From Octopus vulgaris (taxonomy: Eukaryota), in the NCBI GenBank assembly GCA_951406725.2, contig OX597817.1, forward strand, positions 100,192,001 through 100,256,000: a DNA stretch of 64,000 bases. Reading direction: 5' to 3'. Position numbers and translations under genes: made by a program. This document shows, one piece after another, positions 29,711 through 43,833 of this stretch. The first letter of the stretch is position 1. Each line of letters begins with the position of its first letter. The notes under the pieces are model-generated. The model saw nothing but the letters and a program-made list of their open reading frames with translations, made no database searches and was not told the origin of the DNA.

Positions 29711-30538
29711 TCATTCCACTGTAAGGGAGTGACATTTCTTCACACAGCTCTCCTCATCCATATGCAGCACATGACCATACCAGCTCCATCGTCTCTCTTG
29801 CACACCACATCTGATGCTTCTTATGTCCAACATTTCTCTCAGGGCGCTTACACTCTGTAGTGTGTGTACAATGATATTACACACCCAGCGGATCATACTA
29901 ACTTCATTTCTTTCAAGCCTACGCATGTCTTCAGCAGTCACAGCCCATGTTTCACTGCTGTGTAGCATGGCAGTTCGTACACATGCATCATACAATCTAC
30001 TTTTCACTCTGAGCAAGAGGCTCTTTGTTACCAGTAGAGGTAGGAGCTTTCTGAACTTTGCTCAGGCTATTCTTATTCTAGTGGCAACACTCTCACAGCA
30101 TCTGCCCCCACTATAGACTTGGTCACCTAGGTAGCGGAAGCTATCAACTACTTCTAGTTTCTCCCCCTGGCATGTGATAGAATCAGTTTTCTGAGCATCT
30201 GTGGTGTTTATTTCCCCTGTGCATCTGCTGCACAAAAAAGCTATCTTCCTGGTTAACCTTCCTTTGATGTTGCTGCACCTCTTATGCTTCCATAGCTCAC
30301 ACTGGGTACATCTTATGGTTTTTCTACCTACACCTTTCCTACAGATCGAGCAGGACCATCTACCTGAAGGGATTTGTGATGTGTTCGCCTTCCTACTTAC
30401 TAGGACTTTGGTTTTTGCAACATTGACTCTAAAGCCCTTCAATTCTAAACCTTGCTTCCACACCTGAAATTTCTTCTCTAGTTCTGGTAGTGATTCCACT
30501 ATGAGAACAAGGTCATCAGCATAGAGGAGCCCAGGGGC
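29711..30538 (-). mobile_element. RTE LINE internal fragment (YADD to near C-terminus)
   Basis: ORFs 29711-30016 and 30062-30499. Confidence 0.9.
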
Positions 30539-30559
30539 TTATATTTATAAATTAATATA

Positions 30560-30777
30560 AACAGCCTGGTGCAATGTAATACCATAAAGGAAAAATTCAA
30601 TGTCACACTAAGTGTGACTACGGGTGCCAAAGCACCTACATTGCTAGAAATAAGAGTTAAAATACTCTTAATATATTTGCATTCTTCTTTCCACATTAAG
30701 TGTATTTTAACATTATTTCTAACAATGTAGGTACTTCAGCACCCTTAGTCACACTTAGTGAGAATTGAATTTTTCCA
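30560..30777. repeat. Imperfect inverted repeat related to the hammerhead-bearing unit at 35515-35940
   Basis: GGAAAAATTCAAT...CACTAAGTGTGACTA...CCTACATTGCTAGAAATAA is mirrored by TTATTTCTAACAATGTAGG...TAGTCACACTTAGTG...ATTGAATTTTTCC. Confidence 0.7.
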
Positions 30778-32568: not shown

Positions 32569-34467
32569 GATGATGATGAGAATATATATATATAGGTGCA
32601 GGTGTGGGTGTGTGGTAAGAAGTTTATTTTCCAACCACTTGGTTCCAGGCTCAGTCATTCATTTATAACTTTGTCATTTTCATCAAACCAGTCTTGGTTT
32701 TTATGACATGAAAATCCAAGAACTTCTCTGGATGACTCACAAATAGTATCTCTAAGTTGACCCCATCATTCTAACATTACGTAACTTTTCATCAAGTGCT
32801 TGAACAAGAATATCCTTGTTATCTACTTTGAGCTTTGAAATATCAAGTCTCCGTATGATTTTTTTTACAATTTTACGTTATGGCTGGCTTTGGTCTCATT
32901 GTTATCTTACTAAAAACATAGCATGATCAGACCAGCAATGGAAAGAATGTGTTAATTTAATATCAATTCTATCTCAGCTTCAGACAATCACATAGTCAAT
33001 CAAGTGACCATGACCTGATCTAGAATGATACCTAATTACTTCGTTTTTATTGGACTGTTGAAAAAGTGTATTGGTGATAGAAGGTTCAGATTCACTGCTT
33101 AATGATAGTTGTATCAGTCCTTTTGAGTTAATTTTGCTAAGACCATGTTTACCAAAAATATTTGGTCAAGAAAGGTAATATGGTATTAAAATCTCCTAAA
33201 AGGAAAATTTTGTTTTGACTGGGAATTTGGTTCAAAAATATTTATAAATCAAAATAGAACTTATCTTTAGCTGCATCTGTAGAACTAAGTGTTGGTGCAT
33301 TCAGACATACTAGTGTAGCATAATTTTGTAGGCCAAATGGGATTCGCATTAACATTAGATAATCATTAAATCCATTTGGTAAGGATTCTAGTTTATGTAC
33401 AAATCATTACTAATAGTGAAACCCACACCAGATTTCCTTTTTTCTGCTTCAGATTTACCAATCCAGAAGAAAGTGCACTCTCCAACAACTTCATTCAGCT
33501 GACCAGAATTTAGTAGCCTTATCTCTGAAAGAGCAGCAATACTAACATTTTTACTTCTCAGAAACTGATCAAGAAGTGATGTTTTGCACTCAGGACACTT
33601 CTTGTGGTCCAGTGGTGTGTGTACATGTCAAGCTTCTATACTCATATCTATTTCTCTACCCTTTTTCTTTTGTTTTCTCATATTTTTCCAACTGTATGGT
33701 TGAAAGTTCAGCCATTCACAGTATAATGACAGGATTGTGTGAGCAAGCAATTTTTAGGACACCTTTTTTAGCCCCCTCCCCACACAAGTGAAAGCAGTGC
33801 CATCCTAAATAGGCTGCTTTGTAGTTAAGAAGAGGACATATCAGTTTCACAGAATGGTCATCTACTTCTTAGCACCATACATGAAAAGCTCAAGCTAGGG
33901 ACCTCCAGTGACTTTCCCCATCTGCCCCTGTTGCTATCACTGTAGGATTTGATTTGTTCTCATGTTGTCACTAAATGGCCTGCACCGTGAGTTTCTTTAA
34001 AGTGGAATTTGCTTGTGCTGCACAAAACACACTCTCTCCACCTAAAAAGCACATAACCTGTACTAGAGCACAGTGTGCCACTTGTCAAATGCAGACTTGG
34101 TCACAGATCAAGTAGTTATGGTATGGCTTGATCTACCAATTGGCTGAGGGTTTGTGGCTCAGCACATGCACAAACACACACATACAAAAAATATAAAATA
34201 TTAAAAATATAAATATAAAAAGGAATTGTGCTGTTGGTGATTGTTTTTTCCTTCTTTGAACTTTTCCTGTTTTCCTTTCTGACGGAGAGCTATGCTCAAA
34301 ACATCAAAAACTCTTTTTACTTAGCATCAAACTAATACATTCCATGTGCATGTCCTTTAGTTGTTTGGTTATTGTTATTTTTAATGTTCATTTATTCAAT
34401 TTGACTATATATATATATATATATATATAGACAGCTGTGTGCAATGTTTTACCAAAAAGGAAAACTA

Positions 34468-35512
34468 TTGGGTTGGCAAGAAAGTAATTTTGGTTTTTTA
34501 GTGTGAAATAAAAGTAATTTTTTTTCATTTTTTTTTCTTGCAAAGAATGAACTTTAATCAATTATATATTTTCCATTTTGCTCAATGACCTTTTGCCATC
34601 ATTCTGTCAACTTCATGATTCTGCAATCATCAAACTTCTGGTCCTTATTTGCCAATTCTAGGCATTTTTCTTTGACTGCTTCCTTCAGTTTCATTAGTTG
34701 TTGACAGTAAACATCTGAATTGATCCTTGGTTCCTTGGAAGCAACTCAAAATATACAACACCTTTGTAATCCCACCAAATCAACAGCATGACTTTTTTTT
34801 TATGCATTTCAGCTTTCAATGTGGTTTGTGCTGGTTCATTATGCTTGGACCATGATCGTTTTGGATTGATATTATTGTAGACAATCCAGTTTTCATAACC
34901 AGTGATAATTCATTTCAAAAACAAAAGGTTTAATTTCATTGCATTTGAGATGCATATTGAAAATATTGATTCATTGTGTTAAGTGAATCTCTTTCAATGT
35001 ATGTGGAACCCAGATATCGAGCTTCTTAATGACTCCAAGACATTTTAAGTGATTTTCAATTGTGTGTGATACATTTAACTTTTCTGCAATCTCTCACACA
35101 GTTATATGGCAAATCAGATTCAATTATAGCTTTGGTTTGGTCATCATCAACTTCAGCAGGTTAACCAGAAAGTTGGTTGTCTTTGAGTGAAAAATCTCTA
35201 GAAAGTAATTTTTTAAACCATTTCTAACACATGCATTCTGTTAAGCAATCAGCACCATAAGCTTCACATATCTCTATGTGAGTCTCAGCAGTTTTCTTGC
35301 CTTTACAGAAATAAAAAAAGCAAAATATAGTGAAGATGTTCGTTTTTGCACTCCATGTTAAAATTGACACTGAACTAACAGCTGTGAACTAAATTATGTG
35401 CAATTTGCTTCTAAAGTAAGTTAAAAGTAACAGCTATCAAATGTCAAAAGTCATCCAAAAAATCATAACTCCCCTATTTGTGAAAAACGAAATTGCTTTC
35501 TAGTGAACCCAA
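34468..35512 (-). mobile_element. Internally deleted mariner with both TIRs and TA TSD
   Basis: TA|TTGGGTTGGCAAGAAAGTAATTT ... AAATTGCTTTCTAGTGAACCCAA|TA; minus-strand DIWVPHTL and ITGYENWIVYNN motifs. Confidence 0.88.
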
Positions 35513-35662
35513 TATATTTGTCACTAAATATGACTAGGGTGTTAGAAACACTTACATTCCTAGAAATAAGAGCCAAAATTCTATAATGCTGTAGTCAAAG
35601 CACATAATTGTATACATACTTACTGAAGGTACTATAATTGCCTGAAAACACCAATCGAGAAT

Positions 35663-35715
35663 TCCTTATACTGACAGGTCAGTTTCAGCAATTTTCGTTG
35701 CCTCATCAGTAAGGA
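35663..35715 (-). ncRNA. Type I hammerhead ribozyme, essentially intact
   Basis: Minus strand UCCUUA-CUGAUGA-GGCAA-cgaaaa-UUGCU-GAAA-CUGA-ccug-UCAG-U-A-UAAGGA; perfect 6-bp stem I, full core, GUA cleavage triplet. Confidence 0.85.
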
Positions 35716-35986
35716 CTGGCTCAACTTTAACAGATTCCGGACTGAATTCTCTGTCAGTATATATGTTTTCACCATATAAAAATCTATGGATGATTTATTC
35801 AATCATTAATGTGTATACATAAAATTAATATAGACAGCCATATGCAATGTTTTACCGAAAAAGGAAACTATAATTGTCACTAAATATGACTAGGGTATTA
35901 GATACACCTACATTGCTGGAAATATGAGCTAAAATGCTCTAGGAGTTAAATAATTCGAAACAGGTTTATTATTAGCTATTTTACTG

Positions 35987-36782
35987 AATTACTATTTTTA
36001 AATCTCATAATGAGAGATATTCAGCAAAAGTACTTTGTAGTAAAGATCATTTGCCAACATAACACAGCAGTCCTGGTTTAGGACAAATGTTGCTGTAATT
36101 TAGCCTCAGAAAACATTGTCTTCAGCTGGCTGTATGACACAATGTGTCTTTATATTTTCGAACAAGGGAATCTAGCACCCCCACTCAGCTCAGCTCAAAA
36201 CAATATCTGTGTATCACGATTTCTGGATTATTTCTTTTCATTAGCACAATAATTGTCCGGCTAGAGGTGGCGCTGCCAAATTCCTGTTTGAAATATATTG
36301 TTTTCAAAGTGACAACTAGTCACTGATCTATAAATTAGAAAATTACTATTTTTAAATCTCACAAAATATAAGGACATAGATCGTGTTGTATAGCCAGCTG
36401 GAGACAATGTTTCCTGGGGGTAAATTACAGCAACATTTATCCTAACCCAGGACTGCCGTGCCATGTTGGCAAACAATCTTTACTACAAAATACTGTTGCT
36501 GAATATCTCTCATTGTGAGATTTAAAAATAGTAATTTTCTAATTTATAGATCAATGACTAGTTGTCACTTTGAAAACTATATATTTCAAATGGGAATTTG
36601 GCAGCGCCACCTCTAGCCGAACAATTATTCTGTGCTGATGAAGGGCAATAACCTGGAAATTACAATACACAGATATTGTTTTGAGCCGAGTTGGGGTGCT
36701 AGATTCCCTTGTTCAAAAATATAAGGACACAGATCATGTCATACAGCCAGCTGGAAACAATGTCTCCTGGGGCTAAATTACA
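35987..36782. mobile_element. Second ~354-bp tandem unit, present as >1 copy in each orientation, each orientation with a decayed minimal hammerhead
   Basis: AATTACTATTTTTAAATCTCA at 35987 and 36341; 36362-36782 is a permuted reverse complement of the unit; hammerhead motifs at 36629-36673(+) and 36206-36249(-). Confidence 0.8.
36629..36673 (+). ncRNA. Minimal type I hammerhead motif (decayed), sense to CDK20 pre-mRNA
   Basis: UCUGUG-CUGAUGA-AGGgcaauaaCCU-G-GAAA-U-uaca-A-U-A-CACAGA; sister copy has GAAAUCGUGAUA, suggesting an ancestral palindromic UCGCGA stem III. Confidence 0.65.
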
Positions 36783-36897: not shown

Positions 36898-37019
36898 GAT
36901 TTGAAACCTGCTAATTTATTAATAAGTTCCACTGGACATTTGAAAATTGCTGATTTTGGTCTAGCCAGAGTTTTCCAGAACAGTAATAACTGCGAGTACA
37001 GTCACCAAGTGGCTACAAG
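36898..37019 (+). CDS. CDK20: CDK20 coding exon 5 ([41 protein letters not shown])
   Basis: TTGCAG acceptor, catalytic loop and DFG, donor AG|GTAAG. Confidence 0.97.
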
Positions 37020-37414
37020 GTAAGATTGTCAATTTATGTAAAGTCTACTGTTATAACTGAACTTGGGTCTACTTTGTCCTCTTTCCATTTACACCATCTT
37101 CATTGCCTTCATGAAGACATGATGATAGTATAAAGAGGAAGCAAAGCCCACACACACATGCACAAAAAAACAAAGATACAACACTTATAAAAACTGCATA
37201 TTTTACTAAATTTTACAAAATTCTGAGTTCAAATTCTGCCAAAGTCAACTCTGCCTTCCAGGGTCAATAAAATGAGTACTGGGATCAATGTAATTGGCTG
37301 GCCCCTCTCACCCAAAATTTCAAGCCTTGTGGCTATAAAAGAAAGAATTTTACTACATAAATAATTCATTTGCTTATCCATATTTTTCTTTTAGTTTATC
37401 TTCTTTTCTTGTAG

Positions 37415-42229: not shown

Positions 42230-43798
42230 CTATAACACACGTAGCACCTCGCTGTGCCATCCCCATTCCGCGCAATTATCGCCGACGACCAGGGACCATT
42301 CCGCCTTTCCACTGTTCCCCGTTGCCGATATCTCCTCTTGCGCTGCTGTACTGGGACCTTCCTCCGGCCTTGCTGCTTCCTCAAGCGACGACCGCCTTGG
42401 TTGATGAAACACTCCGCCATGTTCGCGCGACCAACGTCCTGCGCTCCTCACCAACGGTTGCTTCTTCTGCAACTGCATCAGCGGACCACGATCTCCTTTA
42501 ACTGCATCACTGCACCGGCAGAACTGACCCCGCCGCTGGTTCACCGTCTGGCGCAGTTCCACGATTTGCCCTCTGCAAATCGCCTGCGCAGCCTTCAATA
42601 AATCGGCCGACCCAACCAGCGCTCTGTCAACTTCTGCCTCCACCAGGGTCCAGCCGACCCTCAATTGAGCTCTTACTCCGCACTGCCTGTCGGGCTCCAC
42701 CGGCCCCACGCAACCATCGAATACAGAGCTCACCCAAGTGCCAACCAAGCACCAGCGACTCCTTGCGGACCGCTTCCTCAACTGCATCAGTGGGCCACCA
42801 TCTCCTTCAACTGCGTTGCCGTATCGGCAGAACTGGCCCCACCACTGGTTCGCCATCTGGCACGATTCCTCGATTTGCCTTCTACAAATCGCCTGTGCCA
42901 CTTCCAAAAGATCGGCCGACCCAGGCAGCGCCCTGCCAGCTTCTGCTTCTACTAGGGTCCACCCGACCCTCAATTGAGCTTTTACTATGCACTGCCTGTC
43001 GGGCTCCACTGGCCCCAAGCAGCCATCAACCACAAAGCTCACCCAACGCTGAAGCAGTCTTCCTGGTCTTGGTGGACCCACTACCGTTCGTAGCTGTCTC
43101 GCCTCATCAACGGGCTTGGTCCTTTTCCTCACCAGCTTCCGCACATCAGGCCTCACAACATGCACGCTCGGCCGCCAGTCCATCCACACCTGTGGCCTCT
43201 CCACAGTGGGAACCATACAGTCCTTCTGGGCCCCAAGAGACAGGGGCCCAGACACCAAAGGACCCGCACACGGCATAACACCTGCCGCGACCATTACACA
43301 CAGAGCCGGAACCTCGGATTCAGCGACATCCGCCCCAGACCTCGCCAGCTCTTCGTCCCGAGCTCCGAGAGACAGGGGTCGAGATGCCAAGGGCTCCAGA
43401 CACGGAACAACAGCATCAGCCATAACACCTTCAACAGGCCTTTCGGATTCCTCAACCTCTACGGGTTCCAAATCACAAGATTTCTTGGGTACAGCGTCAC
43501 AAATTTCGGCAACCAACCCAGGTTCCGCAACACTTCCTTCACTATCTGTTTCACTCGATGCTTCGTTTGACGGGCAATCTCTGCCCACAAGACCGTCGCT
43601 ATCCCCGGTCCAACACCGATCCTCCAAAGCTGACCCATCCGCAACCTCAAGCTCCTGCTGATCTGCCCACAGGCCCTGTCGCCTCTTGTCCATTCTTTCT
43701 AAGAATGCGTCTGTCTGCGCCATCTGGCCCCTCAACATCTCCACAATCAGGGCAAGCGAAATCTCCTCGTCTCCGGTCCGACAACCAGACAAATCCAT
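42230..43798 (-). CDS. LTR-element internal ORF (522 aa from first ATG), probably gag-derived, with internal repeats
   Basis: Uninterrupted frame starting ~36 nt after the PBS; predicted helical N-terminus, acidic linker, two ~100-aa repeats; no protease/RT/integrase motifs. Confidence 0.55.
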   Translation of the reverse strand: MDLSGCRTGDEEISLALIVEMLRGQMAQTDAFLERMDKRRQGLWADQQELEVADGSALEDRCWTGDSDGLVGRDCPSNEASSETDSEGSVAEPGLVAEICDAVPKKSCDLEPVEVEESERPVEGVMADAVVPCLEPLASRPLSLGARDEELARSGADVAESEVPALCVMVAAGVMPCAGPLVSGPLSLGAQKDCMVPTVERPQVWMDWRPSVHVVRPDVRKLVRKRTKPVDEARQLRTVVGPPRPGRLLQRWVSFVVDGCLGPVEPDRQCIVKAQLRVGWTLVEAEAGRALPGSADLLEVAQAICRRQIEESCQMANQWWGQFCRYGNAVEGDGGPLMQLRKRSARSRWCLVGTWVSSVFDGCVGPVEPDRQCGVRAQLRVGWTLVEAEVDRALVGSADLLKAAQAICRGQIVELRQTVNQRRGQFCRCSDAVKGDRGPLMQLQKKQPLVRSAGRWSREHGGVFHQPRRSSLEEAARPEEGPSTAAQEEISATGNSGKAEWSLVVGDNCAEWGWHSEVLRVL

Positions 43799-43833
43799 AG
43801 CGAAAAAGCCGATCAAGCGCAGCAATCAGGACG

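Follow-up and report, generated by a model that had tools for sequence, protein, structure and literature searches.

A mariner-interrupted copy of a dispersed 356-bp retrozyme-like hammerhead family in an Octopus vulgaris intron

Animal hammerhead repeats and the octopus locus

Metazoan non-LTR retrozymes are described as tandem units of 170–400 nt that carry canonical type I hammerheads and are expressed as circles; the repeats of the mussel Mytilus galloprovincialis measure 350–390 bp, and Penelope-like elements have been proposed as helpers (PMC7229834). A preprint that surveyed 31 vertebrates, 3 insects and 1 coral ties retrozymes to the terminal repeats (pLTRs) of Penelope-like elements, those of Xenopus being homologous to them; monomers and dimers were common, 42–44% of Xenopus copies were intronic, and cleavage was seen in 1 of 9 tested elements (Li, Clavereau and Pollet 2026; 10.64898/2026.07.22.740005). 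Penelope-like elements themselves occur as partial tandems and inverted 5'-truncated copies with an optional 30–40-bp tail in (TA)n targets (10.1101/2021.04.23.441226), the tail being put down to two internal sites at which reverse transcription can begin (PMC11167929).

We analysed a 64,000-nt stretch of the Octopus vulgaris genome (the window) that holds a hammerhead motif within a gene intron. We are fairly confident that it belongs to one old, mariner-interrupted copy of a dispersed 356-bp retrozyme family that was presumably copied by a Penelope-like enzyme and is likely inactive today. The family resembles the described metazoan non-LTR retrozymes in its non-coding monomer of 170–400 nt, its GC content under 45%, its canonical type I hammerhead, its head-to-tail copies and the co-existence of autonomous Penelope-like elements (PMC7229834). 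It differs in being old, decayed and known from DNA, and in consisting mostly of dispersed insertions of one to two units without long arrays. With the retrozymes of Li et al. it has in common the dispersed monomers and dimers, many of them intronic, and a Penelope-like link; there the link is sequence homology to pLTRs, whereas in the octopus it consists of insertion marks and we found no homologous autonomous element. Since neither a long array nor a dimer with two fully intact cores was seen among 81 family loci, the family falls outside the 'active retrozyme' as those authors define it (10.64898/2026.07.22.740005).

The hammerheads of pLTRs share with the family the type I fold, a palindromic stem III, partial tandems, two 3' ends and AT-rich targets (PMC4209133; PMC11167929). 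In contrast, the octopus family has no ORF, and its stems I (6 bp plus a distal helix) and III (4–5 bp) are full length, not the minimal form with a long stem II and short stems I and III. The satellite hammerheads of newts, axolotl and cave crickets (PMC7229834, PMC2837043) and SMalpha of Schistosoma are likewise of type I in a short repeat, with double-hammerhead potential and compensatory stem changes; the octopus stem III is longer than theirs and could also close as a monomer, and its copies are dispersed, not arranged in satellite arrays.

We found no report of an octopus or other cephalopod hammerhead repeat in the literature searched, including the accessible parts of PMC10886601 and PMC2837043. 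The main text of PMC7229834 names no cephalopod retrozyme (its supplement may list cephalopods), and the O. vulgaris repeat paper mentions neither ribozyme nor retrozyme in its text or supplement. The family may be catalogued under another name in Repbase, Dfam or the octopus repeat library. In all likelihood it belongs to the known animal retrozymes as a new member that has since decayed, and does not form a kind of its own; as such it extends non-LTR retrozymes to the octopus genome.

Table 1. Features of the element, its ribozyme and its surroundings in the window
Feature	Positions	Strand	Evidence
Type I hammerhead with extended stem I (core fold 35663–35715)	35653..35726	-	sequence, constrained folding, pair counts over 47 copies
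One full 356-bp monomer, non-coding, 32% GC	35513..35868	-	repeats, profile matches; no open frame of at least 150 aa
Preceding partial monomer, 5'-truncated, pseudo-LTR-like, without ribozyme	35869..35941	-	direct repeat 86%; nhmmer E 6e-18
3' extension ('tail'-like end), severed by the mariner, entering (TA)n	34424..34467	-	direct repeat; nhmmer E 8e-6
(TA)n microsatellite, 3' end of the element, likely insertion target	34407..34430	.	sequence
Decayed mariner, later TA insertion splitting the element	34468..35512	-	terminal inverted repeats; broken transposase frames
Upstream arm (the earlier note's 'off-switch')	35751..35761	-	family pairing with downstream arm
Downstream arm, counterpart of the upstream one; eroded in the window copy	35614..35629	-	sequence, duplex computation
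Second remnant of the same family, same intron, ribozyme-less	30538..30766	.	3'-end fragment 30538–30669 (minus) and inverted fragment 30698–30766 (plus)
Host intron of the CDK20-like gene, GT...AG between HR and DLKPAN codons	28765..36897	+	sequence

The hammerhead motif and its genomic family

On the minus strand the window element runs from 35941 to about 34424, where it ends in (TA)n, and comprises about 1.3 monomers with one ribozyme (Table 1). Direct repeats 35513–35585/35869–35941 have a spacing of 356 at 86% identity, and a further pair, 34410–34464/35813–35867, has a spacing of 1403. The mariner and its TA duplication account for 1047 bases (1045 bp plus TA), and 1403 minus 1047 is 356, so the period is 356 once the mariner is removed. 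An earlier note on this DNA, made from the letters alone, had described direct copies 356 bp apart after removal of the mariner and no coding capacity, and both hold; the monomer lies within the size and GC ranges of retrozymes and contains no long frame. Contigs of runs X11 and X12 include joints that skip 1047 bases at the mariner. The 3' end of the element is also seen as the end of other copies, and a profile of the monomer recovers all six family pieces in the window. The note's placement in a CDK20 intron stands as well for the plus-strand kinase gene, which we take to be CDK20-like from its kinase motifs and that note; its next splice junction (37017–37413) is present in contigs of runs X1 and X3. 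As the ribozyme lies on the minus strand of this plus-strand gene, it is antisense to the pre-mRNA.

Every part of the hammerhead that had been named from the letters, and its predicted cut site, agrees with the sequence: 35715–35663 of the minus strand form a complete type I motif. Stem I (35715–35710 with 35668–35663) is followed by the core segment CUGAUGA (35709–35703), a 5-bp stem II (35702–35698 with 35691–35687) whose opening pair is G-U, the core segment GAAA (35686–35683), a 5-bp stem III with a 4-nt loop (35683–35679 with 35674–35670) and a GUA triplet (35671–35669), with the predicted cut between 35669 and 35668. The CUGANGA and GAAA core, the NUH triplet and the three stems, with stem I open, are those of type I. 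Constrained folding adds a part absent from the earlier note, a 7-bp distal helix (35726–35720/35659–35653) that prolongs stem I beyond a 4 x 3 internal loop, which is a trait of extended type I hammerheads. Pair 10.1–11.1, canonically G-C, is G-U in the window copy; across 47 family copies it is G-C in 27 and G-U in 15, consistent with CpG decay.

An Rfam search of the whole window at gathering thresholds gave no match, and in E-value mode only Hammerhead_3 appeared (24.5 bits, E 0.006), a weak match to a type III model that lies under its cut-off. The motif is not a chance occurrence, because it recurs in a genome-wide family (64 exact matches, against 0 for the reversed control) with compensatory changes. 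The minimum-energy fold of the window copy is not the hammerhead (folding z -1.8): nearest-neighbour folding places the predicted hammerhead 3.7–4.2 kcal/mol above the ensemble, owing to a competing pairing between the core and the 3' strand of stem III. A loop change in the window copy was considered as the cause of this predicted misfold and rejected, since the competing pairing is present in all five structures printed (the window copy and four others) and reverting the base had no effect. The consensus that RNAalifold derived from 35 copies was weak; it showed the misfold and missed the long arms around the ribozyme. Retrozyme monomers are described as highly self-paired; for predicted circles the folding z was an unremarkable -0.5 in the window copy and -1.4 to -6.2 in six others.

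With the monomer as query, at least 71 matches on many contigs were obtained in the genome (G000) from the 40 scored of 1646 first-look candidates; a second-subfamily query scored 40 of 2271, the search being one that scores 40 candidates and skips very common words. Full-length matches are 79–89% identical to the monomer. Exact searches with four patterns gave 4, 64, 47 and 31 dispersed matches. Since the exact degenerate hammerhead motif (the 64 matches) is present in 12 of 57 similarity-selected loci, we put the number of copies with a ribozyme at about 300, a rough minimum. Over 85 rows, counted after exclusion of the segmental duplicate L091, the median nearest identity is 82%; one local duplicate pair reaches 95%, and no other value exceeds 86%. 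Within the window copy, the direct repeats disagree at 17 of 115 sites, a half-distance of 0.08. On a scale in which 0.09 corresponds to 25 million years (PMC13282606), the window copy would be about 20–25 million years old, provided that the scale fits this genome and that the repeats were identical at insertion. Judged by its divergence, the family looks old and decayed and is likely dead today.

Pairs were counted over 47 aligned copies, of which roughly half had been selected through the core motif; duplicates and truncated copies that aligned poorly were left out. The earlier note had held that a lack of conserved core and stems among genomic copies would speak against a ribozyme; of 752 cells 91.5% were paired, compared with 21–43% in slid controls. 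The covariation it had asked for was likewise found, with two-sided changes in 7 of 16 pairs, including two stem I pairs that switch between subfamilies (U-A to A-U in 13 copies and C-G to U-A in 13). Most of these changes go back to a single division into two subfamilies, so they amount to few events, and the shuffle numbers cannot be read as probabilities. Stem III comes in four versions, each a perfect palindrome. The centres of 47 short-loop matches are CG in 29, AT in 5 and TG or CA in the other 13, which is CpG decay; 31 long-loop matches comprise CGCG (14), CCGG (1), CpG-decay forms (13) and three others, among them the window copy. A palindromic stem III is a mark of hammerheads that work as dimers (PMC4209133), and its occurrence in four versions makes the family a clear case, provided by nature, of selection for the pairing of double hammerheads.

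Positions 35751–35761, which had been suggested as an off-switch across the cleavage site, are indeed complementary to 35667–35677 over 11 nt. A conserved switch was rejected as a family feature: the upstream arm is one side of a long hairpin whose other side, the downstream arm, lies 3' of the ribozyme. The variable base of the upstream arm tracks this downstream arm (23 G-C and 11 A-U among 42 rows); where the upstream arm has A, in 13 rows, the ribozyme strand keeps its C in 12. This covariation is one subfamily split and essentially one event. The downstream duplex is the stronger one in most of 37 copies computed. The window copy is among the exceptions, with -16.6 kcal/mol for the upstream arm on the cleavage strand versus -13.4 on the decayed downstream partner, and in its 121-nt fold 35751–35761 sits in a local hairpin of its own. 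A transient block during transcription is still conceivable in the first subfamily.

Insertion ends and Penelope-like elements

The earlier note had proposed a genome-wide search for tandem arrays of the 356-bp unit, and in the loci examined the outcome was dimers and not long arrays. Head-to-tail pairs of the ribozyme motif occur in 3 of the 81 family loci (L101, L108 and L112), 356, 346 and 344 bases apart, and a fourth pair (L080, at G000:C4:160339465) has its motifs 299 apart. Head-to-tail copies that each carry a canonical type I hammerhead are thus a property of the family, with cores partly decayed; L101, L108 and L112 have core or stem changes, and none of them holds two clean ribozymes.

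When same-strand runs were compared, 57 of 81 (55 loci) stopped in two clusters about 55 nt apart, roughly 150 and 210 nt downstream of the predicted cut. One cluster coincides with the query end and is inflated, though such ends are also seen directly in copies. A microsatellite follows 33 of the 57 clustered ends versus 9 of 24 other ends, a comparison made without a genome background control. The 5' starts are scattered, runs reach 748 bases, and 21 of the 55 loci contain an inverted copy. The copies show the marks of Penelope mobilisation: truncation at the 5' end, partial tandems, inverted 5' copies, a 3' tail in some and (TA)n targets. Their end spacing of about 55 nt is longer than the 30–40-bp tail of Penelope-like elements. 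The pattern of ends supports, from the genomic side, the existing proposal that retrozymes are mobilised by Penelope-like enzymes.

At least two young ORF-bearing Penelope-like families with GIY-YIG ends are present in the genome, together with older ones. An autonomous partner was sought by a GIY-YIG search, and the two young and several older families inspected had no similarity to the monomer; a search of 48 Penelope-like loci, 226 kb in total and not all with complete terminal repeats, gave 0 matches to the monomer profile at E 1. The flanks of different copies share nothing beyond microsatellites and further common repeats. Of the 81 family loci, 2 are flanked by remnants of Penelope-like proteins, neither contiguous with the unit: the one at L006 is unrelated and has a terminal motif of its own, and the one at L086 lies downstream. 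The earlier note had allowed that the unit might prove to be merely the pLTR of a Penelope element. No such link, and no flanking ORF with reverse transcriptase and GIY-YIG domains, emerged from the 81 family and 48 Penelope-like loci, a sample that is not exhaustive.

The young families have features of their own. One is very young (L053:244–5460 in G000:C6, also L050–L055) and has two ORFs, a 479-aa upstream frame and a 781-aa RT/GIY-YIG frame with a CxxxxCxxC linker; its 504-bp terminal repeats are 100% identical, and it is inserted in (TA)n. Hammerheads are described as usual in elements of this kind; a simple pattern search of its terminal repeat found no CUGANGA...GAAA core. The other (L142 and L143, in G000:C10 and C1) is GC-rich, with frames of 884–1008 aa and near-identical 6.2-kb tandems, and the same simple pattern found no hammerhead core in it. 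Minimal hammerhead-like motifs (CUGA-GA, hairpin, GAAAC) were seen in other abundant repeats at L006:1945–1915 (minus), L009:918 (plus) and L012:2788 (plus), which are probably terminal repeats of further Penelope-like families. At L059:4428–5000 a 287-bp tandem duplication lies directly 3' of the stop codon of an older Penelope-like ORF.

Origin and present state of the window copy

The explanation we prefer starts from the motif, the period, the family, the covariation, the dimers and the pattern of ends, all of them observed. Each hammerhead of an ancestral tandem transcript would have cut it, probably with two palindromic stems III pairing to assist, and the 356-nt monomer probably closed into a circle. 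TA-rich microsatellite DNA would then have been nicked by the reverse transcriptase/endonuclease of a Penelope-like element, and copying may have begun at either of two internal sites of the RNA, some 150 and 210 nt past the cut. Continued across the ribozyme junction for about one to two rounds, it would have produced partial tandems truncated at the 5' end, often accompanied by an inverted copy. The junction-spanning copies could stem as well from an uncut tandem transcript as from a circle.

The insertion marks are the same as those of Penelope-like elements, and the unit might instead be a pLTR remnant of an autonomous element whose ORF-bearing copies went unsampled. Xenopus retrozymes are homologous to pLTRs (10.64898/2026.07.22.740005), and the 81 loci examined come from perhaps hundreds or thousands. 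Against this, what precedes the monomer in tandem copies is the monomer again and not an ORF, the protein matches flank just two loci and are contiguous in none, the profile found nothing in the 48 Penelope-like loci, and the hammerhead is canonical, unlike the minimal pLTR type (PMC4209133). We consider this origin unlikely, and keep it in view because the sample is partial. Slightly less probable still is that the family keeps, at some other place in the genome, a young master array that is transcribed and yields circular RNA even now. The limits of the genome search, the young Penelope-like helpers and the possible loss of collapsed arrays from the assembly would leave room for one, but the exact motif searches returned only dispersed matches, and nearest identities (with L091 left out) do not exceed 86% outside the single 95% pair.

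That the window copy is kept by selection, cutting a CDK20 antisense transcript with the upstream segment as its off-switch, strikes us as very improbable. Its core and all three stems are intact, and its upstream arm does favour the cleavage strand; yet 8 of the 57 similarity-selected motifs pass the same test of intactness, so the state of the window copy is unremarkable and needs no selection. It has also lost the G10.1–C11.1 pair and, with the break in its stem III palindrome, much of the predicted homodimer (-15.5 versus -25.9 kcal/mol), and the variable position of the arm follows the downstream arm and not the ribozyme strand. Of 24 listed runs, 4 were examined, all of them as contigs. 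Those that span the copy come from runs X1 and X3, taken by guess for RNA; they show 0 differences from it, but at depths of 3.9 and 2.6, and they pass through the predicted cut site, that of X3 continuing into the mariner. Such cover is compatible with intron read-through and uninformative on strand, ends or circles. With about 1.3 units and one ribozyme, no 356-nt circle or monomer could be released from the window copy. The term retrozyme-like, which the earlier note had applied to the locus, consequently suits the family, with its non-coding 356-bp monomer, tandem dimers and covariation, and not a working unit at this antisense locus. Most likely the window copy is a neutral fossil without function.

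Within the preferred reading of a Penelope-copied retrozyme family, a more specific version is possible though doubtful: the family may be a fossil record of Penelope machinery copying a 356-nt ribozyme circle from fixed internal starts for one to two rounds over the ligation junction, with no sequence debt to any sampled autonomous element and with a dimer-switched hammerhead. In the folding model behind the switch, the monomer would be held off by the pairing of core and stem III, and palindrome-driven dimerisation would activate it, the palindrome having been kept through four different versions. If true, this would open the proposed partnership of retrozymes and Penelope-like elements to a direct test with a Penelope-like protein of the same genome. 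The four palindromic versions of stem III and the pattern of ends are the most valuable findings, since they bring dimer cleavage and copying by Penelope-like enzymes within reach of a test.

Two other stretches of the window deserve mention. Adjoining the element, 35987–36782 holds nested inverted and direct copies of another very abundant short repeat, with a spacing of 353 bases, arms up to 95% complementary and high depth in 4 of 4 runs examined; the arrangement looks like a Penelope-type tandem/inverted insertion. Finally, a GC-rich stretch at 42233–43825 (minus strand) carries a 531-aa open frame that is probably retroelement-derived.
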